DNA of 14,748 nt from contig JBDRFG010000091.1 in the NCBI GenBank assembly GCA_043819135.1, positions 1-14,748 of the forward strand, read 5' to 3'. Shown here in pieces: positions 309 to 14,261 of this stretch. Position 1 is the stretch's first letter. Every line of letters begins with the position of its first letter. The notes below the pieces were generated by a model. The model saw nothing but the letters and a program-made list of their open reading frames with translations. It was not told the DNA's origin and did no database searches. Origin of the DNA: Candidatus Eiseniibacteriota bacterium. GTDB taxonomy: Bacteria; Joyebacterota; Joyebacteria; Joyebacterales; Joyebacteraceae. Position numbers and translations under genes: made by a program.

Positions 309-2660
309 TCAGTCGAAGACGCCGAAAAGGGTGGCATGCCACCGCCACTCGTCTCCACCGTCCGGGTCGAGCGGGCGCGCGATGCTCACCGAGAGAGCGC
401 ACGGGATTCCGCGATCATCAAGGCCGAAGGCGCTCCCTAGTCCGATCTCCACATCGGCCCGCAATTGATGGGGCGTGTGGTGCTCGTCCCAGTGCCACGC
501 ATCGCCGGCGCTCAGTCCCACGAAGGGCCCGAATCCGCCGAGAATGTCAGGCGATCTCAGCCAGAGCTTCGAGCGTGCCAGGAACACCCGGTCTCCGACC
601 AGCTGGTTATCCTCGTATCCCGGCAGCGTGGCCTTTCCCCCTAGGAAGAACTGGTCCTGAACGGGCGCTGCCCCATTGACCAAGCCTGCATCCAGGCGGC
701 TGTCCCACAGGCAGGATCCGAGGACCTTCAGCCTGCTGGACAAACTGACCTCGGTCCGGACGAATTCGAAGTCCCCTCCGAGGGCGCCGCCGACCGCGCT
801 GGCCTCCGCTTCTACTCCCATGCCCGATTCTCGAGCCGGGCAGAACCGTTGGTATCCGTATCCGAGGGTGACCGCCCTGCGTCTCCCCCGTCCGACGCCC
901 TCGGTTCTGTTCGGTGAGTAGTTCCTCGCGCCGAAGATGCTGATGCCGTCCGCGTGTTCGATGGGCTTCTCGAAGTCAGACGTCATGCTCAGGGAGAAGC
1001 GGTGGCCTGCGTGGGCCGGCGGAGAGAAGCTCCATCTTAGATCCCACCCCTCTTGAGATACGTGGTCCACACCATCGTGACCAAAAGCGAGCATTGAGAG
1101 CCACGATTCGAAAGACAACGGCACCTTCTGCCCGCGAAATGGTGCTGGCCGGTCGTGATAGCTGACACTCGGCAACCAAGCGGAGGATGCGTCCAGCCGC
1201 ACACCGTAGAGCCACGCCCTGTCAAGGTCCGTGCCGTAGGTGCACCCGGCTGTCCAGACGTCCTCCCGCCGGCGGCTGCCGGCCGAAGAGACCGTTCCTT
1301 CCCGCTCGCGAATCACGCTCCAGCGAAGCGAGGATGAAGCTAGCCATATTGCATCGATCTTCGTGTAGTCGACGGGGAACGGCAGGCCTGCCAAGGGCTC
1401 CAGGCGAAGGACGCCGCCCCGCCGTGCGTCCCGCGACGGCTGCCACTCAAACGCCCCAACGAAGTTGAATCCCCCGACATGTCGAATCCCGTGCTGGCTG
1501 TACCTGGGCTCCGGTCGTTTCGCCGGGATCCTCACAACGCGATCAAGGAAAACTGACCTCTCGGTCCCGTCCCTGGAGCGGGCAACTGCCTCCACCCTGT
1601 CACCCGGTGCGAGACGCTCATACTCCTCCTGGAAGGTCTCGACCGAGTCAAGCCGTCTCCCTTCGAGCGTCATGAGCACGTCGCCCTGCTGCGAGCGCGG
1701 AATGTCCGCCTCGTCGTCCAGCTTCTCATCGAACCCCCAGGCGAAGCGCCCGGATGCTGTCGCGGCCGAGAAGCCCCCGAACCTCAGCTCTTGTTCCGAT
1801 CGGGGTCCCGTCCGCGTGGGCTGCGGAAGCGGGTCAACGCTCCGCACATAGAGCCCGCCGTCCACTCCCGAGACATCGAGGGACTCGACCTCGGCCACCA
1901 GGGGCGTGATCTTCTCCAGATTCAGGCCGGACGACGGAGCGGGAGGTCCCTGGGCACTGTAGCGCACGGTTCGCAGATCTCCACCTGCCAGGAAACCTAA
2001 GGACACCAGGTCTCCGATGCGAAGCGTCTGAAGAGCACTGCGCAGATCTGACACCGAGCGGACATCGCGGTCACCGACAGTGACGACCGCACAGCCGGCA
2101 CTGAGACCCGCATGACTGAGTTCGGGGATGCCGTGGTAGACCCAGCTCACTATCGGAAGGCTGTCGACGCGAGCGAACTCATCGGGCAGCGAATCACGGA
2201 GGGCTTCGCGCTCAAGAAGCGGCACGGTGTCAAAGCCGACGTAGCCCCGCGGCAGCTCGACCGCCTTGAGACGCGCCTCCCGCGCCGTTCCCTCTCGGAG
2301 AACTGTGAGCGTGACCTCTCCGCTGTTTGCCAGCCCCTCGAGGACCGAGTCGAGATCGCCCGGGCTCCTGATCGGGACGCCGTTGGCAGTGGTAATGACG
2401 TCGCCCTCGCGCAGCCGGGCCGAATCCGCCGGCGAGCCGTAGTCGACGCCGACGACGCGAACGCCAGGCCCCGTGGAGCAGAGGCCCTGGTCCTTCCAGT
2501 CACCGGAGCGCGCCTCGGTGACCAGGACTCCGATGTAGAGAGACTGCGAGCTGGATGAGGTGACGGCTTGTCCCGTGAAGCCTGGAGCCGCCTGAGAAGG
2601 AAGCACCAGAAGGGCAAGTGTCAGAACTGGAAGAAGCGCATGGTTCCGAAGGCGCGTCAA
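309..2660 (-). CDS. Signal peptide, about 3 PDZ domains and a C-terminal Omp85/BamA-TamA-like beta-barrel (outer-membrane protein)
   Basis: PDZ signatures GVRVVGVDYGSPADSARLREGDVITTANG, AGLSAGCAVVTVGDRDV and QQGDVLMTLEGRRL...LAPGDRVE. The C-terminus has the Omp85-like pattern GGDFEF...FFLGGKATLPGY...GDRVFL...AGDAW and ends in an amphipathic strand WRWHATLFGVFD. Start moved from 2816 to in-frame TTG 2660 because a GAGGAGG RBS precedes it and a signal peptide (HALLPVLTLALLVLPSQA) follows. Confidence 0.75.
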   Translation of the reverse strand: MTRLRNHALLPVLTLALLVLPSQAAPGFTGQAVTSSSSQSLYIGVLVTEARSGDWKDQGLCSTGPGVRVVGVDYGSPADSARLREGDVITTANGVPIRSPGDLDSVLEGLANSGEVTLTVLREGTAREARLKAVELPRGYVGFDTVPLLEREALRDSLPDEFARVDSLPIVSWVYHGIPELSHAGLSAGCAVVTVGDRDVRSVSDLRSALQTLRIGDLVSLGFLAGGDLRTVRYSAQGPPAPSSGLNLEKITPLVAEVESLDVSGVDGGLYVRSVDPLPQPTRTGPRSEQELRFGGFSAATASGRFAWGFDEKLDDEADIPRSQQGDVLMTLEGRRLDSVETFQEEYERLAPGDRVEAVARSRDGTERSVFLDRVVRIPAKRPEPRYSQHGIRHVGGFNFVGAFEWQPSRDARRGGVLRLEPLAGLPFPVDYTKIDAIWLASSSLRWSVIREREGTVSSAGSRRREDVWTAGCTYGTDLDRAWLYGVRLDASSAWLPSVSYHDRPAPFRGQKVPLSFESWLSMLAFGHDGVDHVSQEGWDLRWSFSPPAHAGHRFSLSMTSDFEKPIEHADGISIFGARNYSPNRTEGVGRGRRRAVTLGYGYQRFCPARESGMGVEAEASAVGGALGGDFEFVRTEVSLSSRLKVLGSCLWDSRLDAGLVNGAAPVQDQFFLGGKATLPGYEDNQLVGDRVFLARSKLWLRSPDILGGFGPFVGLSAGDAWHWDEHHTPHQLRADVEIGLGSAFGLDDRGIPCALSVSIARPLDPDGGDEWRWHATLFGVFD

Positions 2661-4386: not shown

Positions 4387-5763
4387 CTAGGCCCGGCCGG
4401 CGGCCTCACGTAGAGCGCTCTCAATCAAGTCACTAGCGTCTCTTGAAGCGGCCTCTGCGTCTACGAACTTGCTCCAAAGCGATTTGACTTGCTCGCACGA
4501 AGGACTCGGAGGCGGCAGCACCACATCCCCCATGTCCGCTTCGAACGTCGAGTCAACCACTGAACCCGAGGCCTTGGACTTGAGCTGCACCTGCGCATGC
4601 CACGTCCGGATGGCTAGATACAGCCAGCCAGAGTCGATATCTGATTTCGGTACCAGCCTGCCGACATGACCGCTGGCAAGCCAGCCATCTCGGTCGGTGG
4701 TCACCAGGACAGGCGTACCAAGGCCGCCCTCAGCACGTCCATCAGCCTGATACGCAGTCCAGCCGCTTCGCAGTTCGTACCGTCCCACGTCCTTCAGGGC
4801 GCGCGGAGATATGTGCTGCAGGTTCACCGGGTTGAGCTGGAGGATCTGTCGCCCAGAGAGGATTGGTCGCCCATAGTCGGAATCGACATAGACGGTCTTG
4901 TATCGACCACCGGGTTTGCGGACCTCTGCGACATCGCGTACGCGGACTCCTCCTTCGGAGAGGAGCGCACTGCGCACCGCCTCCACCAGTGGGTCGTGGT
5001 AGGCCGCGTCAAGTCTACCGCCGAGGGCATGGTTCTGGACCGACCACCCGGCGCGCAGCGGTGACGTTAGCGTCGGATTCGGAAGAACGTCCTCGTATTC
5101 CGTCTGCGCCGCAGCTAGACCAAGTCTCGCTTCCTCACGGAGAGCCACAGCCCTCCCCATGGCTTCGGCCACTTCCCTGCGCAACCTCGTTTCCAGAAGT
5201 GGTACATGCTGCGCCTCCAGATGGCTCCCGGAGATATGGTCAATCACTGACCCAGTCTTGTCTCGACGCACCAAGTGCTGTGCTGTCTGCGTCTGGAGAT
5301 AAGCTAGGACGTTCAGCCGAACCTCTGCATCTGCGATGCGAACCCGAATCATGTCGTGGCTGAGAACGAACTTGGCCAGGTAGTCATCAACGATGCTCGC
5401 CGGGCCCAGGTTCCTCCCCGAGCAGGACTGCAGAATGAGACCGGCCTGCAGCTGGTACTGCCGGAGCTTCTTTGTCCTCTTCACAGAGAGATAGGCCGAG
5501 GCCAGCGGCAGATACTCGAACACGTCGTAGGGCTTCAGATAGGGAACCCCCACCTCTCCCTCTGCCGCGTACGACCGCTTGAATCGCTGCGGAGCCCAGA
5601 CCTCTGCGATGCCGTCAGAGTCGCCCAGCGTTCCGAAGGACATCCCGCCTGCCCTAGCTTCATCAAGAAGCTGCGCCGCCTGGACACCCGCCGAGAGGTA
5701 GTACATCGCGTCCAGGCGACTTGAGCGTCCCACCACACTAGATTTCACGCTTCTTGTCTTCAT
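4387..5763 (-). CDS. Restriction-modification specificity (S) subunit with two target-recognition domains
   Basis: Two repeated halves, each opening with RLDA.Y (RLDAMYY, RLDAAYH), with ILQSCSGRNLG, TGSVIDHI and SGSVVD..DMGDVVLPP motifs and helical spacers. ATG 5763 overlaps the methylase stop (ATGA), so it is preferred over 5781. Confidence 0.85.
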   Translation of the reverse strand: MKTRSVKSSVVGRSSRLDAMYYLSAGVQAAQLLDEARAGGMSFGTLGDSDGIAEVWAPQRFKRSYAAEGEVGVPYLKPYDVFEYLPLASAYLSVKRTKKLRQYQLQAGLILQSCSGRNLGPASIVDDYLAKFVLSHDMIRVRIADAEVRLNVLAYLQTQTAQHLVRRDKTGSVIDHISGSHLEAQHVPLLETRLRREVAEAMGRAVALREEARLGLAAAQTEYEDVLPNPTLTSPLRAGWSVQNHALGGRLDAAYHDPLVEAVRSALLSEGGVRVRDVAEVRKPGGRYKTVYVDSDYGRPILSGRQILQLNPVNLQHISPRALKDVGRYELRSGWTAYQADGRAEGGLGTPVLVTTDRDGWLASGHVGRLVPKSDIDSGWLYLAIRTWHAQVQLKSKASGSVVDSTFEADMGDVVLPPPSPSCEQVKSLWSKFVDAEAASRDASDLIESALREAAGRA

Positions 5764-7760
5764 CCTTGCGTGTCCAACCACTGTAGATAGGCATCGGCCA
5801 CTTCAGGTAGCTCATCGTCGATAACACGCTCCGCGATGGTCTCCTCGAAAACACGCTCCGCACCGGTCTCCGGGTCTACCTGGATGCTTGTCCGAGACTG
5901 TGATGCCAGAACTTCGTCGCCTTCCGGGGTATGCCGGTAGATGGCGTTCCCCCTCTTGTCGTGGCCGATACTCTCAGCAACCGCCATGAAGACCTCGTAG
6001 TCGAGCTTGCCCTCAGAGACGAGCGCTCGTTCCTTGGCATCGAGCCTCCGCATGAGCACCATCGAGGTCTGAGTGTCGTTTTTCGGCTGGAACAGGTCGC
6101 GAGCCATGTCCACCACAGCAATGACCTGAGCGTTCTGGAGAATCCACTCTCGGACATAGCCCAGCGCAGGGTTGTTCAGTATGCCATTCGGAATGACCAT
6201 CGCCATTCGCCCGGTACCCTCCTTGAGCAATTGCAGGCAACGCTCGATGAAGAGAATCTCGGGCGGCTGTGACTTCTGCAGTACCGGGTTCCCGTGTGAG
6301 GCGAGACGCATCGACCATCGCCCGTTGTCATGCTCGTCCCACCAGGCGGCGAGGTCGAATTGCTCGAGGACGCTCACATCATCGATGACGATTTTGGTGC
6401 CGAAGGGGGGATTTGTGAATAGCACATCTACAGTCCCGAGCTGGATCTTCTTGGTGATGTCCGGATTCCAGGCATGAGGGTTCGCCAGGCTGTCCGCCTG
6501 GAAGAGGTTCCCCTCGCCATCGTTGTTCATCACCATGTTCATCTTCGCTGCTCGGACAAGGGACGGATTCAGGTCAAGTCCAAACACGCACTCGCCCAAG
6601 TGCTCAGCCCGCTTCCGGAAGAGCTCTTGGCGCTCAGCTGCAGTCCCGTTGGTGGGGTCCTTCCACTTCTCTCGCTCACCCTCCTCAAGGATCGCGAGTG
6701 CGTTATTCATGGCGGTTATGAGGAAGCCACCCGTCCCGCAGGCGGGGTCAAGCAGCCGCTCCGATGGCTGCGGAGACAACATGTGAACAGCCATCCTGCA
6801 AGCGTTCCTCGGAGTGAAAAACTCCCCTCGGTCACCGCGCAGATTGGAGCCAACTACTTCTTCGTACGCGACTCCCTTGACGTCGACGGGAGAAGCCAAT
6901 AGGGAGTAGCCCTGAAGCTGGCTAACCACGTACGCCACGACGTTAGCCTTCAGACCGATACTCCCGTGCGCCCCCGTGAATATCTTCGGGTACTTCTTCA
7001 CGACCTTCTCGGCCATGAGCTTCTGTATCCTAGCTCTGGCCGGAGCTGCAGAAGTTGAGTTACGCAACTCCTCTGGCGTCACGTAGAAACCCAGTGAGTC
7101 GGAGCGCTCGTCTTCAATCTTGCAGAAGATGAGCTTCAGTAGCTCCCAAAACGCATCCTGCTTCTGGAGGCCCTCTGTTCCGGCGACGTAGTTGTGGCAC
7201 CGCCTGAACGCGAACAGCAGGTTGTCTGCTGTGGCAGGCATGAGGTCGCTTCGCTTCGGGCGAAACGCCTCCTGCTCGGACTGGCCGAATGCGGGGATGT
7301 CGACTATTGGCTCGAAGGTGTGCTGCCCTTTCGCAGTCCTCTTCGCGAAACAGAAGCGGTCGTCGCCGTTCGTCCAAAGACCGTAGCGCGCGTTCAGGCA
7401 CGCCGCCATGTACGACTTCAGCTGGCCGACGCCCTCCTTCTTGTCCTTGGGATTGGTACCAGCCTTCTTGGTCTCGATGAGGACCACTGCGTTCTCCTGC
7501 AGATGCTTCGCATCATGGTCGAACACGACAATGTCGACACGAGGTTTCGCGCTACCCATCTTGATGCGAAACTCTGGCTTGCAGTCCTGAGCCACATACT
7601 TGTACTGCCTAACAAGCGCCTTCTCGATGTTCTGGCGAACGTACTCTTCAGGAGTGTCCTTCACAGGCTTGTTCGTCAGGAAGTCAATGACGTAGCCCTC
7701 TGGTATCGCCTCGACGTGCACAGCGACCGGTGGAACGTTACTTCGTCTCTTGCGCGGCAT
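5760..7760 (-). CDS. Fused PD-(D/E)XK restriction endonuclease (HsdR_N-like) and N6-adenine DNA methyltransferase, BcgI-like type IIB/IIG RM subunit
   Basis: N-terminal PEEYVRQ...RVDIVVF...LIETKK...QLKSY...WTNG nuclease pattern. Methyltransferase motifs GEFFTPR, LDPACGTGGF (motif I) and NPPF (motif IV), in gamma-class order. AAGGA RBS upstream. Confidence 0.9.
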   Translation of the reverse strand: MPRKRRSNVPPVAVHVEAIPEGYVIDFLTNKPVKDTPEEYVRQNIEKALVRQYKYVAQDCKPEFRIKMGSAKPRVDIVVFDHDAKHLQENAVVLIETKKAGTNPKDKKEGVGQLKSYMAACLNARYGLWTNGDDRFCFAKRTAKGQHTFEPIVDIPAFGQSEQEAFRPKRSDLMPATADNLLFAFRRCHNYVAGTEGLQKQDAFWELLKLIFCKIEDERSDSLGFYVTPEELRNSTSAAPARARIQKLMAEKVVKKYPKIFTGAHGSIGLKANVVAYVVSQLQGYSLLASPVDVKGVAYEEVVGSNLRGDRGEFFTPRNACRMAVHMLSPQPSERLLDPACGTGGFLITAMNNALAILEEGEREKWKDPTNGTAAERQELFRKRAEHLGECVFGLDLNPSLVRAAKMNMVMNNDGEGNLFQADSLANPHAWNPDITKKIQLGTVDVLFTNPPFGTKIVIDDVSVLEQFDLAAWWDEHDNGRWSMRLASHGNPVLQKSQPPEILFIERCLQLLKEGTGRMAMVIPNGILNNPALGYVREWILQNAQVIAVVDMARDLFQPKNDTQTSMVLMRRLDAKERALVSEGKLDYEVFMAVAESIGHDKRGNAIYRHTPEGDEVLASQSRTSIQVDPETGAERVFEETIAERVIDDELPEVADAYLQWLDTQG

Positions 7761-8426: not shown

Positions 8427-8900
8427 CTACTCCGGATACTCACCGGAGCAGAAGCGATCGAGACCTATACCTATCAGAATAGCTGCAGCGAGTCCCGCGA
8501 TCCCAGCTGCTATTGCACCGGAAACACCAAGCACGACCAGCAACTCGGCTGCTACCGCATTGACAGCCACGCCGCCTGATCCAGACGCAAGGCTCCCGGA
8601 GATAGGCTTGGGAGTCCCCGACTCGCAGAGGGCCTCGCGGAGGATGGTCTTCATGTCGTCGATGTATCGGTGGGCTCTCTTCCGGAGGCCGCTGGCGAGT
8701 TCCTGCAGCTGGTGCCCAAAGAGCTCGTAGTCGTCAATCCCCTCAGCGCCAGCGAGCAGCCTCACGGCCGCAAGGTAATCATCGATGCCCTCAAGTCTCA
8801 AGATCTCGAGGCCAAGAGAGACCTCTTGTTCGGCCAGGCTCAAGCTCGCGGCCCTCTGGGCCACGGTGACTGCCCGCTCAATGTCTGCGTTGGCATACAT
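8427..8900 (-). CDS. Hypothetical protein with a C-terminal Gly/Ala-rich hydrophobic (membrane) segment, last gene of the operon
   Basis: ATG 8900 has GGGAGG upstream and lies 1 nt after the previous stop. The C-terminus is VAVNAVAAELLVVLGVSGAIAAGIAGLAAAILIGIGLDRFC. Confidence 0.7.
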   Translation of the reverse strand: MYANADIERAVTVAQRAASLSLAEQEVSLGLEILRLEGIDDYLAAVRLLAGAEGIDDYELFGHQLQELASGLRKRAHRYIDDMKTILREALCESGTPKPISGSLASGSGGVAVNAVAAELLVVLGVSGAIAAGIAGLAAAILIGIGLDRFCSGEYPE

Positions 8901-8901
8901 G

Positions 8902-9633
8902 TCACAAATCCCTCCCAAGAGACCTGAGCGCTGTGTTGACTACGTCCGTGAGCCAAGTCTTCCTGTCTGGTATCTCCATCTTCTCCTCCGGAGCTAGCAT
9001 CCCATGACTCTCCGCGATGTCGAAGCAGTCCTGAACGCGATGGCCGTGCGGAGGTTCGCCCACACCCAGTTCTCGCTTGTGGTGACGCTCGAACTCCTCG
9101 GGCGTCATCTTGGCGAAGTCGACGTGCCCTTCAGCAATGAGGTTACTGTATCGAATCTCGGCTGTCGCACGCAGCCCCATTAGCCGGAAACACCCCAGTG
9201 GTTCGAAGACCTCTGCCTCCCCAGGATTGCGAATCCCCCCGATGAGCAGCCTGTCGGCAGGAAGTCCGCATTCGACTACGTCTCTCCGGATGCGGTTCAG
9301 TGTGCGCTGCGCCAGCACTCTCCGACCCGCGTCAGCCCTCAGCGAGTCGCCGAGCTCCATCAGCGACCAACGGTCAAGCGGCCATCCGCAACGCAGGGCT
9401 TCGCGCCTCAAATCGTCGGTCAGGCTGTAGTACCGGAATCCCCACTCGCCGACGAGCCAATCGCGCGCAGCACCTCCCCCTGTACCCTTCAGGCTGGCAA
9501 GACCAACCATCAGGCCACACTCAAGCGGTACCAGGAACTGGAACTCCGGGTCCTCAGCGAGCTTGCTGAGTTCCGCCGTGACGCTGCCATCATACCGGCC
9601 ACTGTCCATCGTGCTTGTTCCTCGTCCTTTCAC
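8902..9633 (-). CDS. P-loop nucleoside-monophosphate/dephospho-CoA-kinase-like protein with degenerate Walker motifs (probable pseudokinase)
   Basis: GF.YYSLTDDLRREA, LMELGDSLR..AG..VLA, GIRNPGEAE, A.AEIRY and TPEEF...RE match the kinase domain often fused to dCMP deaminases. Walker A reads GLASLKGTGGG (no GK) and the usual IDGIR reads IGGIR. Start is GTG 9633 (GTGA overlap) or ATG 9609. Confidence 0.75.
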   Translation of the reverse strand: MKGRGTSTMDSGRYDGSVTAELSKLAEDPEFQFLVPLECGLMVGLASLKGTGGGAARDWLVGEWGFRYYSLTDDLRREALRCGWPLDRWSLMELGDSLRADAGRRVLAQRTLNRIRRDVVECGLPADRLLIGGIRNPGEAEVFEPLGCFRLMGLRATAEIRYSNLIAEGHVDFAKMTPEEFERHHKRELGVGEPPHGHRVQDCFDIAESHGMLAPEEKMEIPDRKTWLTDVVNTALRSLGRDL

Positions 9634-10145
9634 TCAGGCCCCAGGCGATGGAGCACCAGTTGTGCAATCCGCGCGCACGGATACAGGGCAATGGGAAGGG
9701 TGCCAACGTTGGCGAGTTCCAGCGTCAGGTTCCCCTTGAAGCCGGCCCTCGCCATAGTCGCAGTGGCGATGACAAGACCTAGCCGTCCCCAGGAAGAGCG
9801 GCCAATGACGTAGCCCATCAATTGGGGCGGCAGACACACATACTCCAGCGTGGAGGCGAGTGCGAACATCCGCGGGTGCAGGTAGAACGGCTGACCGAAC
9901 CGCTGGCGTGAGGATGTCTGGTACTCGGTAAGATCCCGACCCAGCTGACTCTCCTTCACAGGATCAAGCGCGACCAAGCCGGAACGGTTTACAGTGACGA
10001 AGTCATTGGCTAGTCGAAGGTCGACGGACCCCTCGCTTATCTGCAACTTAGCATCTAGTATGGGCGTGATACACAGGCGCTCCTCCAGTGGAGCCGCATC
10101 GTCCGTCAGGAGACCATAGATCTGGTCCTTCGTAAGGACGCTCAA
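9630..10145 (-). CDS. dcd: dCTP deaminase (trimeric dUTPase fold), divergent and lacking the C-terminal lid
   Basis: Motifs SVDLRL, FYLHP..FALASTLEYVCLP, GRSSWGRLGL, GFKGNLTLEL.N.G..PI.LYP..RIAQL. TTG 10145 overlaps the upstream stop (TTGA) and has GAGGAG 5 nt upstream. Confidence 0.9.
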   Translation of the reverse strand: MSVLTKDQIYGLLTDDAAPLEERLCITPILDAKLQISEGSVDLRLANDFVTVNRSGLVALDPVKESQLGRDLTEYQTSSRQRFGQPFYLHPRMFALASTLEYVCLPPQLMGYVIGRSSWGRLGLVIATATMARAGFKGNLTLELANVGTLPIALYPCARIAQLVLHRLGPE

Positions 10146-11644
10146 GGCTGCTCCTCTGGCGGCCACGCGCCTCGGCTCATCCGGCGCCTACTGTCTTCAT
10201 ACTGCCGCGCCAACTCAGCCTTCTCGACAGCCCTTAGCAGCCGCTCGTCGTAGCTGAACCGTTCACTCCACCCGGTCTCCTGCTTGTCCATCGCTCCTGT
10301 GAGCGGTACTTGCTGCGGCTCCATCAGCAGCCCTGCGTTGAGAATCGAACGCCAGTCAGCCATCTGGCTCGACTTCCTCTCCGGACCTGCAAGGAAGCCG
10401 ACCTCCAGTGGGATAATGCGAGCGGAGATCTTCTCGGCCAGATCGGGGACTTCTCGCGCGAACTTCTCCACTCTGTACTGGATTGTGCTCTCGGCGAAAA
10501 GTTGTGTCTTGAGACCCTTGGCTGCACTCAGAGCGTGCTCGTACACCGTCGCGTACGGTTCCTCCATCCGCTTGTAGTGCGTGCTGACAAACGCCTGACA
10601 TCGCTGGTGCAGGGCCCTCAGGCGCCGCCCAACCTCTGACAGGTGGTCCTCCCCAGCTTGCTCTGCGCTCGCCCACTCCACCTCCCAGAACTCCTTAAGC
10701 TCGTCGAGCATCACCATGACCCGGTACACAACGTGAGGATGCTTGGTGAACGGTGGCCGGGGAACATCCGAGTACATGGGTCGCTCGCCTGTGGCAAGGG
10801 CAACAGCCAGCAGGCTGCCGAGGGCGGCCGGACCCATGAGCCAGCAAGCCGCGATGTCCGCCAGCGTCTCCCTGAGCCACGCATCCCATACTTGTGCCGC
10901 GCTGGAAGCGTGCACTGCAAACTCGCCAACCGATAGACCCGGTCTGACTTCGTCTACGGCTTGCGTGATATCCGTGCCGCACTTCTCGAGCTGTCCCGCT
11001 ATGCGCTCGTCGCATTCCCTTGCTTCGATGAGGAAGTGTCCTAGCTCGTGGCCGATGCATGCGTGGTGTAGCAGGCCCGCTCGTTCCAGACTGGGAAACG
11101 AGATGACCACGAGTCGGTGACCGTGTGCGTCTAGGATCCCCTCAACATCGACAGGGTCAAGGCCAAACAGTCTGGACGTATTGTCCGCAGTGTCTAGAAG
11201 AGCTGGGATAACGTCGGGAAGTCGTGCGAGGCAGCCGTAGCCCAGATTCGGTTTCGGTCGCAGCAGTAGCTTGGCCCCGGGGTCTATTTGCTTCACGAGA
11301 GCTTCGACCGCGGATTGCAGTCCAACAGGAGCGCGTACCGACGTGGCACTCTCGACCATCGACACGTACGGTACGCAAGCAAAGAGGCTTCTGGTAATCG
11401 ACTGCAACTCCTCGTCTGCGGCGTCAGGATCGATGGATCCCTCACTGACGCCCTTCTTGACCTGACGTATGATCCTCGCCGCACAGCTAAGAGCCCTGAG
11501 CTGGGTCTCCACAAACAGAGCAGACCCCTCAGAAAGGGGCCTGCTCTGGTCTCTGATTTCAGTCAGCCGACGCGACGCCCATAGAGCAGTGAGCAGACCT
11601 GCACTAGCCTTCGCGTCGATCACGGAGCAGCGCGGATCAGCCAC
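10142..11644 (-). CDS. Zincin-like (HEXXH) metallopeptidase-fold protein, 500 aa
   Basis: IGHELGHF, a downstream third-ligand helix WLRETLADIAACWLMGPA, and KHP...YR resembling the M48-type HP....R motif. No signal peptide is apparent. Confidence 0.7.
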   Translation of the reverse strand: MADPRCSVIDAKASAGLLTALWASRRLTEIRDQSRPLSEGSALFVETQLRALSCAARIIRQVKKGVSEGSIDPDAADEELQSITRSLFACVPYVSMVESATSVRAPVGLQSAVEALVKQIDPGAKLLLRPKPNLGYGCLARLPDVIPALLDTADNTSRLFGLDPVDVEGILDAHGHRLVVISFPSLERAGLLHHACIGHELGHFLIEARECDERIAGQLEKCGTDITQAVDEVRPGLSVGEFAVHASSAAQVWDAWLRETLADIAACWLMGPAALGSLLAVALATGERPMYSDVPRPPFTKHPHVVYRVMVMLDELKEFWEVEWASAEQAGEDHLSEVGRRLRALHQRCQAFVSTHYKRMEEPYATVYEHALSAAKGLKTQLFAESTIQYRVEKFAREVPDLAEKISARIIPLEVGFLAGPERKSSQMADWRSILNAGLLMEPQQVPLTGAMDKQETGWSERFSYDERLLRAVEKAELARQYEDSRRRMSRGAWPPEEQP

Positions 11645-11659
11645 CTGTCACCCTCGAAG

Positions 11660-12184
11660 TCAGGCCGTTGTCATCTGATACTGAAGCTCATCCAACTCAG
11701 GCATCAAGACACGTTGGATGAGGGATTCCAGAAAACTCTCAAGCTCGGTCAGATTCTGTGAGACGGTTAGCCGTTCGGGAGATGGGATCTTCTCCAGTTG
11801 CTGGTACTCGATCATGGCCCCCAGGGCCCGACAGTATTTCTCTACTCTCGTAGGAATGTCCTCGTCCATTCCCTCACCTGCCGCAGAACTAGCCAACACG
11901 CTGTTCGCTCGGCTCGCCACGAGCATCGCCTTCACCGTTGGGAGCCGCGGAGTAGCTTCGCCGTTACCGACAGACAACAGCTGACAAGGCGGCGAGCCCA
12001 TCAGGGCCCCCGCCTGGATGTCGGCCACGAACTCAAGGCCTCGGTAGACTACAGGAACCGCGCGCGGCGCAAGCTCACCGCCACTGAGGAATTCGCGCAC
12101 CAGGCGACGAAGCACCCCTGCGACTGAAGCCATGCGAGTCACGGAGCCTGCGATTCCTGCGTAGTCCTCAACCGTATATACCAT
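11660..12184 (-). CDS. Hypothetical protein, predicted alpha-helical, 174 aa, first gene of the operon
   Basis: ATG 12184 is preceded by GAGGTTAAGGAGA; the stop is 15 nt before the next start. No recognisable motif. Confidence 0.65.
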   Translation of the reverse strand: MVYTVEDYAGIAGSVTRMASVAGVLRRLVREFLSGGELAPRAVPVVYRGLEFVADIQAGALMGSPPCQLLSVGNGEATPRLPTVKAMLVASRANSVLASSAAGEGMDEDIPTRVEKYCRALGAMIEYQQLEKIPSPERLTVSQNLTELESFLESLIQRVLMPELDELQYQMTTA

Positions 12185-12362
12185 TCTCCTTAACCTCTTG
12201 TGGTGCCCCGTTAGAGGCGTTCGTGCTGTGCGCTGGACTCCCTCTGAGATCGCCGGCTCCGTCCGCACGCAATTGACACTTCGCGCGTGGCCGAGGTCCA
12301 AACCGCAGAGCAGTCAGCTTCTCATATGTGACTTCAGGGTCCACTCACCGCAAGTGCTCACC

Positions 12363-12436
12363 GTCGCGGTAGAACCGCCAGTTACCCGACGGCCCCCGCA
12401 CAGATCCCGGCGTGCGGGTTTCCCGCACCGGGCTCT
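12363..12436 (-). ncRNA. Group II intron catalytic domain V and domain VI
   Basis: AGAGCCCGGTGCGGGAAACCCGCACGCCGGGATCT (AGC triad, GAAA-type loop, AC bulge), then GGGGCCGTCGGGTAACTGGCGGTTCTACCGCGAC with a bulged A and a terminal AC. Confidence 0.88.
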
Positions 12437-12467
12437 TTAGTGGTTCTCGCTTCCGCATCAAGACCCA

Positions 12468-13754
12468 TCAGGAACTCGAAGCGCCCGCGGACGGCGCGAT
12501 CACGGGACGCGGAACCTGGAGGTGTTCCAACAACTCACGAAAGCCGGCCCAGTTATAGCTCCGGCGATCGCTCCGTCGGTTGAGCCACTTCTGAAGGATC
12601 CGCATCGCCGCGAAGTGGAACTGCCACAAGCTCCGGGAGTTGCCATAGATCCCGAAGTACCGGTAGTAGCCGCGGAGCTTCTGACTCACCTCGGCGAGAA
12701 GTCGGCGTACAGGAGTATGCCGGTGTTCCCGGCACCAGAGGGTGAACCGCGCCAGCGACCTGCGCAAGCTCTTCCGAGCCGTCCGCCGCTTCAGGTGCGG
12801 TCGCCCCTGCCGGTCCCGACCCCAACGGAACTCGAAGCCGAGGAAGTCGAACGCCTCGCGCCCGTCTCCCTCCCGATCGAACCCTAACCGGCGGGTCTTC
12901 GTCGGGGAGAGCTTCAGCCCGAACTTCGACAACCTCACTTCGAGCTCGATCAGGAATCGGCCGGCCTCCTCCGCGTGCTCGAACGCGCAGACGACGTCAT
13001 CCGCATAGCGGATGAGGCACGCCTCGCCTCGACAGGCACGCACCACCTTCCGGTGAAACCAGAGATCCAGGACGTAGTGCAGGTAGACGTTGGCCAGTAC
13101 CGGGGAGACAACGCCTCCCTGGGGGGTCCCCGTCGCCGGGTGTACCACCTGACCGTCGGTCTCCAGCACTCCGGCCTTCAGCCACTTCCGGATCAACCGC
13201 AGGAACGGTTCGTCGTCAATCCTCTCTTTCAGCATCCGCCCGAGCCAGTCGTGGTCGATCGTCCCAAAGTAGTTCTCCAGGTCGATCTCGACGACGTGAT
13301 GGTACCTCCCGAACTGCAGCTTCACCGTCAACTTGTCGATCGCATCATGAGCACCGACCCTGGGCCGGTACCCGTAGCTGCAACGCAGAAAGTCCTGCTC
13401 GTAGATGGCTGAGAGGATCCGCGCTACCGCCACCTGCAGTAACTTGTCCTCCACCACCGGGATCCCCAGAGGACGCTCCTTGCCGTTCTCTTTCGGGATC
13501 CAATGCCGCCGCACCAGCTTCGCCCGGTATCGCTTCTCCTTCAGGCGCTCCACAAGGCTTCGGATGTTCGTCGCCAAGTCGCGCTCGTACTCCCGCGCGC
13601 TGACCCCGTCCACCCCGCTGGCCGCGTTCTTGCGCACCCAGCGCCAGCTCTCCGCCAGAAAATCCTCGTTGAGCATCCCGTACAGATTGCGGAACCGGTG
13701 CTTCGATTCCTTCCGCGCCTTGTCCGCTATCCCCTGCAGGGAGGTTGACAGCAC
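12468..13754 (-). CDS. ltrA: Group II intron reverse transcriptase/maturase without a C-terminal endonuclease domain
   Basis: Motifs ASGVDG, IPKENGKERPLGIP..EDK, SYGYRP, D...YF..IDH, GTPQGGVVSPVLANVYLH, RYADD and FDFLGF, plus the domain X motif LRGYYRYF. No HNH. The frame is open to 13901; GTG 13754 (before STSLQGIA) is my preferred start but is uncertain. Confidence 0.93.
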   Translation of the reverse strand: MLSTSLQGIADKARKESKHRFRNLYGMLNEDFLAESWRWVRKNAASGVDGVSAREYERDLATNIRSLVERLKEKRYRAKLVRRHWIPKENGKERPLGIPVVEDKLLQVAVARILSAIYEQDFLRCSYGYRPRVGAHDAIDKLTVKLQFGRYHHVVEIDLENYFGTIDHDWLGRMLKERIDDEPFLRLIRKWLKAGVLETDGQVVHPATGTPQGGVVSPVLANVYLHYVLDLWFHRKVVRACRGEACLIRYADDVVCAFEHAEEAGRFLIELEVRLSKFGLKLSPTKTRRLGFDREGDGREAFDFLGFEFRWGRDRQGRPHLKRRTARKSLRRSLARFTLWCREHRHTPVRRLLAEVSQKLRGYYRYFGIYGNSRSLWQFHFAAMRILQKWLNRRSDRRSYNWAGFRELLEHLQVPRPVIAPSAGASSS

Positions 13755-14261
13755 TACGTCCGGTCCGTCGTGCCCGGCGGCTGTTTCCTTTGCAGGCTGC
13801 GAACCCCTGTCCACCGCTTCCCCCTGTGGGCGGCTCTCCCGCCCTCCGAGTACTACCAGTGGATCTGACTCCCGAGAAACCATCGCCAGCCCTTTCGGCA
13901 CTGCCTACCCGGATCCCTCCGGGAGTCCCTCGGGTCTCCCAAGTTCCTGTCGCCTCTCTCCACGCATGCCGCGCTCTTCGTGGACCCCGGCAGGCCCTCC
14001 GGGACCTCGCCCTGGCGGTCCCTTCGTCTTGGCTTCCGGCACGTTAAAACCGTCGCCACCTGCTTCACTGACGAGGCTGTATCAAGCTTCAAGGAGTGCG
14101 GTCTCCCCTACGGCCTACGTGGTTCCCTGTGTACGCTTCGGATGCTTCGTTCGGTAATGCGTACCTCCTGACATCCGCAACACTCGGTACGAGTGGTTGG
14201 CTAGACCTTACTCGGCAGGGACTCTCACCCTGCAAGAGACGCCAAGCTTCGCTTGGCGCAC

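Follow-up and report, generated by a model that had tools for sequence, protein, structure and literature searches.

How does a dCTP deaminase (Dcd) come to have its active-site lid encoded by the first codons of the neighboring gene downstream, and what might such an enzyme do? The question is raised by contig JBDRFG010000091.1 of a Candidatus Eiseniibacteriota bacterium (assembly GCA_043819135.1; 174 contigs, 92% complete), whose 14,748 nucleotides, all analyzed here, are referred to as the window. Dcd and dUTPase are trimers, and their C-terminal arm must close over the nucleotide; in the E. coli and M. tuberculosis structures the Dcd tail covers the active site as the dUTPase arm does. In the window the Dcd open reading frame (ORF; its protein is P0001) ends before this lid, and the overlapping ORF downstream, which encodes a kinase-like protein (P0002), begins with a lid-like sequence. 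Taking the evidence together, we consider it likely that a Dcd-lid-kinase fusion underwent an ancient fission, that the lid completes the Dcd core in trans and that the resulting system probably acts in antiviral nucleotide depletion.

The Dcd ORF occupies positions 9630–10166 of the minus strand and ends with QLVLHRLGPE*, IAQLVLHRLGPE. Comparison with PF22769, TIGR02274 and PDB structures identified its product as a lid-less Dcd core. PF22769 was matched with an E-value of 3.7e-31 (108.7 bits, cut-off 27) over positions 14–152 of 153. The dCTP deaminase model TIGR02274 was matched at 123.1 bits (cut-off 92.8), with only positions 13–154 of 180 covered. The core aligned to residues 15–154 of 190 of M. 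tuberculosis Dcd and 14–160 of 193 of E. coli Dcd, and about 33–36 C-terminal residues are therefore missing. The stop codon follows the last core strand by three residues, and no lid was found in the same chain. The motifs GRSSWGRLGL and LTLE are retained in the core, GRSS..R and LE being invariant in the family alignment. Residues R123, S124, S125, R128 and E150 of P0001 align with E. coli R110, S111, S112, R115 and E138, which we take to be active-site residues; the E. coli numbers were counted from the alignment of the structure with the cis-tailed profile described below.

The missing segment is found at the N-terminus of the kinase-like protein. Its ORF (8902–9633, minus strand) begins with VKGRGTSTMDSGRYDGSVTAELSKLAED / VKGRGTSTMDSGRYDGSVTAELSKLAEDPEFQFLVPLE. 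Near this start stands the lid motif of Dcd, [KR]Y...S[KR][IL]..D; the lid segment as a whole is located at 9520–9609 of the minus strand (residues 9–38 of the ORF, MDSGRYDGSVTAELSKLAEDPEFQFLVPLE). A search with P0001 found 596 homologues; among the 120 listed, 89 carry at least 30 residues after the core, and most of these 89 conform to the cis-tail consensus EYKGRYACPTGPEFSKIYEDKEIEFW. A profile of 24 cis-tailed Dcds aligned end to end, lids included, with the solved Dcds 4xjc, 2qxx and 2j4h/1xs1, the lid stretches matched being YQGKYLFQKGATMSEIYKD in 4xjc, SKYQGQRGPTPSRSYQ in the M. tuberculosis enzyme and DAKYRNQQGAVASRIDKD in the E. coli enzyme. When residues 1–40 of P0002 alone were compared with 354 proteins, they matched C-terminal cis tails of Dcds, the best match being to residues 611–645 of P0206 (E 1.2e-5; KYSGSVHAEVSKLHRDPDW / KGSAPAAIHASKYSGSVHAEVSKLHRDPDWDVLEP). 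A hidden Markov model (HMM) was also prepared from 86 cis tails, with every split protein left out, and searched against 295 six-frame segments of the window. The kinase ORF was ranked first (residues 11–39, E 0.0026, 11.5 bits), with kGrYacpTGPeFSkIyeDkEiefwgp of the model aligned to SGRYDGSVTAELSKLAEDPEFQFLVP. By these alignments the N-terminus of the kinase ORF is a canonical Dcd lid.

No stretch of the kinase protein is better conserved than the lid. Residues Y14, D28 and P36 (P0002 numbering) are invariant among 26 lid-kinases. An alignment of 14 lid-kinases with 40–55% identity has 29 invariant columns, and the 23-residue lid accounts for 8 of them, a concentration that indicates that the lid is under selection. 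In an AlphaFold2 (AF2) model of free P0002, residues 1–22 are disordered, with predicted local distance difference test (pLDDT) values below 50–60; as modeled, the lid of the free protein looks like a docking arm.

These results bear out the observation of an earlier note that had been made on this DNA from its letters alone; all its statements about the sequence are correct. The note had seen the early stop of Dcd, with which the ends of the core alignments at M. tuberculosis residue 154 and E. coli residue 160 agree, and had placed the missing lid at the start of the kinase ORF. It had relied on the E. coli tail, and the sequence given for it was correct, since DAKYRNQQGAVASRIDKD constitutes the last 18 residues of the 193-residue chain; the better support, however, comes from the tails of the subfamily. 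A profile comparison of the kinase N-terminus, which the note had suggested, gave the cis-tail HMM alignment reported above, a weak match.

The two ORFs overlap by four nucleotides, GTGA (9633–9630). The junction TGAGTGA (9630–9636, minus strand) contains the stop codon TGA of the kinase frame (9636–9634), a GTG start candidate (9633–9631) and the Dcd stop codon (9632–9630). A GAGGA sequence (9623–9619, minus strand) is located 9 nt ahead of an ATG (9609–9607) that lies eight codons into the kinase ORF, so that the protein is 243 aa long from GTG and 235 aa long from ATG. Translation of the lid-kinase probably begins at this ATG rather than at GTG 9633, as it does in the database gene call (P0003, 235 aa); P0210, the closest homologue of P0002, is a separate protein that starts at the aligned Met. 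For Dcd, TTG 10145 (171 aa, database gene call P0004) is a more likely start than GTG 10166, from which the ORF runs for 178 aa. A TTGA stop/start overlap with the gene upstream, read from the sequence, lies at 10142–10145 of the minus strand. Core/lid-kinase junctions of relatives have overlaps of the same kind (GTGA, ATGA, TTGA). No score above those of shuffled sequences was obtained in a promoter and terminator scan of positions 8500–12600.

Proteins in which core, lid and kinase form one chain do exist. The longer relatives of P0001 comprise 86 proteins of 313–923 aa, many of them 390–470 aa long and containing P-loop kinase Pfam domains. P0002 aligns to 44 of the 86, starting from its residue 2–20 (best E 1.6e-24). 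Since the alignments begin right after the Dcd core of these proteins, P0001 and P0002 together are colinear with a natural Dcd-lid-kinase fusion. The window could then contain a fused gene damaged by a recent one-nucleotide deletion or by an assembly or sequencing indel, the true gene being either an intact fusion or a fresh pseudogene. One base added at GAG|TGA does join the frames, and with the 171-aa P0004 the notional product is 414 aa long, in line with the 392–472 aa of the natural fused homologues, which are colinear with both ORFs; the assembly, in 174 contigs, is fragmented as well. Against an indel speak the stand-alone P0210 with its start at the aligned Met and the tidiness of the junction, where a GTGA overlap, a stop codon in each frame within 7 nt and a GAGGA sequence before the ATG make up a combination that would rarely come from a random indel.

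An exhaustive HMMER search with P0002 produced 827 matches at E ≤ 1e-3; a word-based homologue search with P0002 returned only the protein of the window itself. Of the best 149 representatives, 28 are stand-alone lid-kinases, 11 have a Dcd core attached and 110 are plain kinases that lack a lid. The count of 28 relied on a tail HMM for which 26 lid-kinases, namely P0002 and 25 of the 28, had supplied the sequences; 19 of the 28 are also recognized by the cis-tail HMM, which is independent of them. Genomic loci were then compared: the window, six genome loci obtained with lid-kinase queries and 80 metagenome loci obtained with short Dcd core queries only, the latter being the best 80 of 516 relatives. 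A metagenome scan with the alignment of P0002 and P0210 found no relative.

The resulting 87 loci were classified by core, tail and kinase HMMs. A core followed by a separate lid-kinase is present in 26 (the window, 6/6 genome loci and 19/80 metagenome loci), and a fused core-lid-kinase in three (L014, L023 and L024). Thirty-seven loci, and six more near a contig end, have a core with a cis lid and no kinase; nine have the core only, five are cut by a contig end and one is doubtful. The arrangement of a core with its lid and a separate kinase was found in none of the 87, so the lid goes with the kinase in 26/26 split loci and is never left on the core. Among the 26 split calls, the kinase match of L042 is weak and the junction of L019 is unclear. 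Two of the split sequences were recovered in identical form from two samples each (L011 and L012, L054 and L055). In addition, one locus (L065) contains a second Dcd-domain ORF at 5887–7149 of the plus strand (420 aa, PF22769 E 1.2e-6), 1.5 kb downstream of the first. The possibility that the short Dcds are truncated gene calls was considered and rejected, a lid-kinase gene being present downstream in their loci.

The split junctions have no conserved sequence. At some the genes overlap by ATGA, GTGA or TTGA or by 8 nt; others read TGATG or leave the genes 1–9 nt apart. Relative to the core, 13 split loci have the lid ORF at −1 and nine at +1, and in the remaining four both ORFs share a frame with a TAG codon in between. 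In a tree of 85 cores (145 columns, a quick search with many forks unresolved), 24 of the 25 split rows, the window included, fall into one clade with an SH-aLRT value of 96. All 24 classifiable members of this clade are split; its internal branches are long, and paths through it exceed one change per column. L031, the split row outside the clade, groups as sister to two fused forms. The core of the window thus lies inside a clade of split genes, and 25 other loci are cut at the same point with other junction sequences and in other frames, which makes a recent indel in the window very improbable.

The same data bear on a programmed −1 frameshift or other recoding at GAG-TGA, which would yield a fused protein alongside the short Dcd. 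In its favor, the downstream frame of the window is −1 to that of Dcd, and the lid resumes where the core stops. The sequence ...CTG GGG CCT GAG TGA, however, contains no X XXY YYZ heptamer, and with a TGA at 9636–9634 in the −1 frame slippage could take place on one codon only, with re-pairing onto a stop triplet. The frames of the relatives, given above, differ from locus to locus and their junction sequences are not conserved. We find recoding hardly credible. Because 26 of 87 loci are split, in three frames, and the window lies inside an old split clade, we take the split to be old and conserved, and assembly error, fresh frameshift and programmed frameshift to be excluded as far as sequence comparison can tell. 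A lid-kinase gene would hardly arise except from a core-lid-kinase fusion, and fission of a fusion is therefore the parsimonious history, although the tree alone is no proof of its direction.

The earlier note had drawn attention to the TGA directly ahead of the kinase GTG and to the 414-aa size of a one-base fusion; both hold, the latter with the 171-aa P0004. It had also asked whether Dcd-kinase fusions exist and whether the split is conserved, questions answered by the 44 colinear proteins and by the 26 loci cut at the same point. Three explanations had been offered in it. An ancestral fusion broken by a deletion or by an assembly error survives as regards the ancestry, for which the colinear fusions speak, and fails as regards a recent break or error. 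A recoding site is not supported. A lid provided in trans fits the conserved architecture best, with every lid on the kinase and none on the core, and from this fit we infer the action in trans itself; such a lid might also serve as the activity switch that the note had in mind.

What kind of protein carries the lid? The kinase body of P0002 was modeled with confidence (AF2, pLDDT 87.4 for the whole model). Its best Foldseek match is 3lw7, which is related to adenylate kinases (TM 0.84 by target, E 3.4e-7); UMP/CMP and adenylate kinases come next. The body is, by this model, a nucleoside monophosphate (NMP) kinase fold. Its Walker A loop (9469–9504, minus strand; residues 44–55, GLASLKGTGGGA) is degenerate compared with the G..G....GK[ST] of relatives. 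The Walker A Lys is retained in 20 of the 26 lid-kinases. With the lysine lost in the window, the subunit is probably a sensor or a scaffold, and P0002 is probably not a phosphotransferase in this lineage.

Two defence-related models match P0002. P0002 matched the PADLOC dCTPase model PDLC02373 with an E-value of 4.4e-10, and 22 of the 26 lid-kinases match this model (best E 5.5e-21). The positions matched are 205–312 of 630 in the PADLOC dCTPase model, in its N-terminal half, and 63–206 of 437 in NF041025 (anti-phage dCTP deaminase); they were assigned to the kinase half from the domain order in the published paper. The NF041025 score of P0002, 24.4 bits, is far below the cut-off of 400, and P0002 is therefore not a member of that family. 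P0001 had no PADLOC match. A complex of three P0001 chains with P0002 was predicted with a score of 0.38, compared with 0.26 for the control, a result that counts neither for nor against binding.

The Dcd core and the lid-kinase belong, as judged from gene order and homology, to a conserved module of four genes on the minus strand: a small protein, an HExxH protein, the Dcd core (the third gene) and the lid-kinase (the fourth). The first gene (11660–12301) is an ORF of 213 aa from TTG, with the true start probably at an internal ATG. It had no Pfam, PADLOC or NCBIfam match; an iterative search revealed homologues of about 155–180 aa, directly upstream of the HExxH gene, in 23 other loci. The second gene (10142–11644) encodes a protein of 500 aa with HELGH at residues 199–203. 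Across 29 homologues the HExxH residues H199, E200 and H203 do not vary, nor do E259, the putative third ligand, and D263; we regard the protein as a putative zinc metallopeptidase-like partner. Of 86 related loci, 75 have an HExxH homologue directly upstream of Dcd and on its strand, independently of how Dcd itself is built, and nine of the 11 loci without one end before the upstream sequence.

The HExxH protein of the window belongs to no Pfam or PADLOC family. Its AF2 model (pLDDT 84.9) gave nothing at E ≤ 0.001 when compared with the PDB by Foldseek; VIA wide returned many helical-bundle matches, with Z of about 10 for residues 1–200, and also ZMPSTE24 (Z 7.2). Two of the 29 homologues matched M48 at E 9.5e-4, and the nearest named Atlas clusters are Peptidase_U49 (0.79), a lead only. 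In three loci (L067, 2348–4546; L079, 1412–3508; L080, 2549–4645) an HExxH protein and a Dcd core share one open frame. The Dcd proteins of 630–746 aa (P0127–P0209) may be HExxH-core fusions of the Rosetta-stone type. P0209, a Dcd-fused relative, matches PF10463 (Peptidase_U49, the Lit protease family).

The module is not found in any of the 30 other genomes of this small phylum that were searched. The absence from 30/30 relatives indicates that the module is accessory and argues against a housekeeping role. In a scan of viral contigs with the core alignment, the 31 loci obtained were all distant Dcds (34–48% identity, partial matches), and the subfamily was not seen. On one side the module is adjoined by genes that resemble, by sequence, components of a methylation-associated defence system (MADS): a MAD2-like methyltransferase (5760–7760, minus strand; NF047738 608 bits, below the cut-off of 720) and a MAD5-like specificity subunit (4387–5781, minus strand; 231 bits, below the cut-off of 400). 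Directly upstream of the module is a complete-looking group II intron (12363–14225, minus strand), with Rfam domains D1–D4 at 13975–14225, domain V/VI at 12363–12437 and a reverse transcriptase/maturase ORF at 12468–13901 (TIGR04416 354.5 bits, cut-off 300). The flanks of other loci contain transposases, integrases, helix-turn-helix (HTH)-M78 regulators (six loci) and PADLOC matches in 13 of 86 scanned ORFs (raw count). Regulators with HTH and Peptidase_M78 domains (CapP/ImmA-like) adjoin the module in L010 (628–1524), L043 (1073–2041), L058, L071 and L082, and in the first two the gene is directly upstream on the same strand. At 309–2816 of the minus strand the window also encodes a protein of 835 aa that contains PDZ domains and weakly matches Omp85/ShlB-type beta-barrels; it is unrelated to the Dcd-kinase finding.

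Several observations weigh against a working deaminase completed by the lid for antiviral purposes. In the core, R140 (9747–9749, minus strand) stands where the IDPG motif has its Asp (D128 in E. coli), a column in which close relatives have E, Q, N or G. In the lid, the window has Ser at the Gln of [KR]Y.GQ, as does P0210; P0206 and P0190 are among the cis tails that also carry Ser at this position. Of the two tyrosines conserved in cis tails (..Y..GRY..), split lids retain only the second. The cis-tail HMM match, at 11.5 bits, is weak and was lost at E 0.01 once all loci were in the database. The Walker A sequence of P0002, ...KGTGGGA, has Gly-Gly for the Lys and the Ser/Thr, as in P0210. 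Housekeeping genes are also found among the flanks of other loci, and no more than 13 of the 86 flank ORFs scanned match PADLOC. Independently of this, Arg at the IDPG Asp column of canonical Dcds and dUTPases could mean an altered sugar or substrate specificity.

Such features would suit an alternative in which the split is real and the peptide is a tether or a relic, the core being regulatory, nucleotide-binding or altered in its chemistry, or in which the module serves pyrimidine metabolism and not defence. The substitution of the lid Gln by Ser, the absent lid Tyr and the core Arg are in its favor, as are the degenerate Walker A of 6 of the 26 lid-kinases and the housekeeping genes that often flank related loci. 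A metabolic role is possible also because a search of the source genome, 92% complete, found no canonical Dcd; the sole other dUTPase-superfamily gene is a classical Dut (L002, contig C72 of G000, ORF 1399–2004, minus strand), which retains its own C-terminal motif V arm (...GGFGHTG). The opposing evidence is as follows: the lid is better conserved than any other part of the lid-kinase, the catalytic GRSS..R and LE motifs are invariant, all 30 phylum relatives lack the module, its neighbors in the window are a group II intron and MADS-like genes, and its kinase module is that of the anti-phage dCTP deaminases. We hold a tether, a relic or a purely metabolic module to be unlikely.

We therefore return to ancient fission with completion of the core in trans, for which the following mechanism can be proposed. 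The break would have occurred in the linker between the last core strand and the C-terminal arm, so that the lid became the N-terminus of the kinase-like protein, and both ORFs would be intact genes inherited in this split form. The four genes would be expressed from one transcript and would probably be translationally coupled through the TTGA and GTGA overlaps. The Dcd core would form the usual trimer with active sites open and incomplete; the kinase-like subunit would dock and insert its flexible N-terminal arm to complete them. If the active sites are completed only by the lid-kinase, dCTP deamination is conditional on that subunit and may even be gated by it. The degenerate P-loop body could be a sensor or a scaffold, and the HExxH and small proteins could be sensors or regulators. 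The output would be nucleotide depletion against phages, in parallel with the anti-phage systems that combine a kinase with a zinc deaminase, and carried out by an unrelated deaminase fold. We infer from the architecture and the neighborhood both the donation of the lid in trans and the antiviral role of the module.

A more specific version is a widespread, hitherto undescribed four-gene antiviral system with two states, in which the deaminase is off while the lid is held on the pseudokinase sensor and infection causes the lid to be inserted in trans and dCTP to be destroyed; control of the sensor might lie with the small protein and the peptidase-like HExxH partner. We regard this version as possible and rather doubtful. 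If true, it would be a second, independent pairing of this kinase-like module with a deoxycytidine-nucleotide deaminase and a naturally occurring example of an enzyme regulated by separation from its lid.

Under the broader reading of ancient fission, the arm of Dcd was moved onto another protein and kept there over a long divergence. The module of HExxH protein and Dcd, with or without the kinase, has 516 relatives in one metagenome scan and is not named in PADLOC 2.0, Pfam or NCBIfam; it is a candidate for a new nucleotide-depletion defence system. For annotation, genes of this family labeled as dCTP deaminase would not be housekeeping Dcds, and the short ones would not be truncated.

A literature search, with subscription journals outside its coverage, found no Dcd of the dUTPase fold with a kinase or HExxH partner and no split lid. 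The systems closest to that of the window each share a part of it. The canonical homotrimeric Dcd of E. coli (structures 1xs1 and 2j4h) and the M. tuberculosis enzyme (2qxx), a bifunctional Dcd:dUTPase, have the same core fold, the GRSS..R and LE motifs and the lid motif [KR]Y....G...S[KR][IL]..D. In the window, in contrast, the lid is on a separate polypeptide and the core has Arg at the Asp of IDPG; the gene is an accessory one, with HExxH and kinase-like genes as linked neighbors, whereas the canonical Dcd is a stand-alone housekeeping enzyme. The natural Dcd-lid-kinase fusions (P0167, P0126 and P0212, annotated as dCTP deaminase) are colinear with P0001 and P0002 and likewise have the HExxH gene upstream, the difference being that they form one polypeptide, while the window and 25 other loci are cut between core and lid.

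The arm of dUTPase (motif V) is, like the proposed lid, a flexible arm that reaches over a neighboring active site; to our knowledge it is always part of the same gene product, unlike the lid of the window. The C-terminal arm of dUTPases covers the active site of the neighboring subunit, and its removal nearly abolishes activity (PMC5519681). Since that arm serves a site outside its own subunit, donation of a lid from a separate chain is plausible. With Lit/Peptidase_U49 and the M48 peptidases the HExxH partner shares the HExxH motif and the downstream Glu; it had no family-level match to them.

The closest functional parallel is provided by the anti-phage dCTP deaminase of Tal et al. and DcdV/AvcD of Hsueh et al. 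The defensive enzyme requires both its P-loop kinase and its zinc deaminase domain for dCTP depletion and for defence (10.1101/2021.04.26.441389; 10.1101/2021.03.31.437871). These systems combine a homologous kinase-like module with a deoxycytidine-nucleotide deaminase, as here, and share the defence-island setting, which in the window consists of MADS-like genes. In those proteins an N-terminal kinase is followed by a C-terminal zinc cytidine deaminase (CDA) fold, whereas the deaminase of the window is a dUTPase-like beta-barrel, the order is reversed and two genes are involved; the HExxH and small-protein partners are extra to the module of the window. That a kinase-like module has been combined with two unrelated deaminase folds suggests that the module, and not the deaminase, carries sensing or control.

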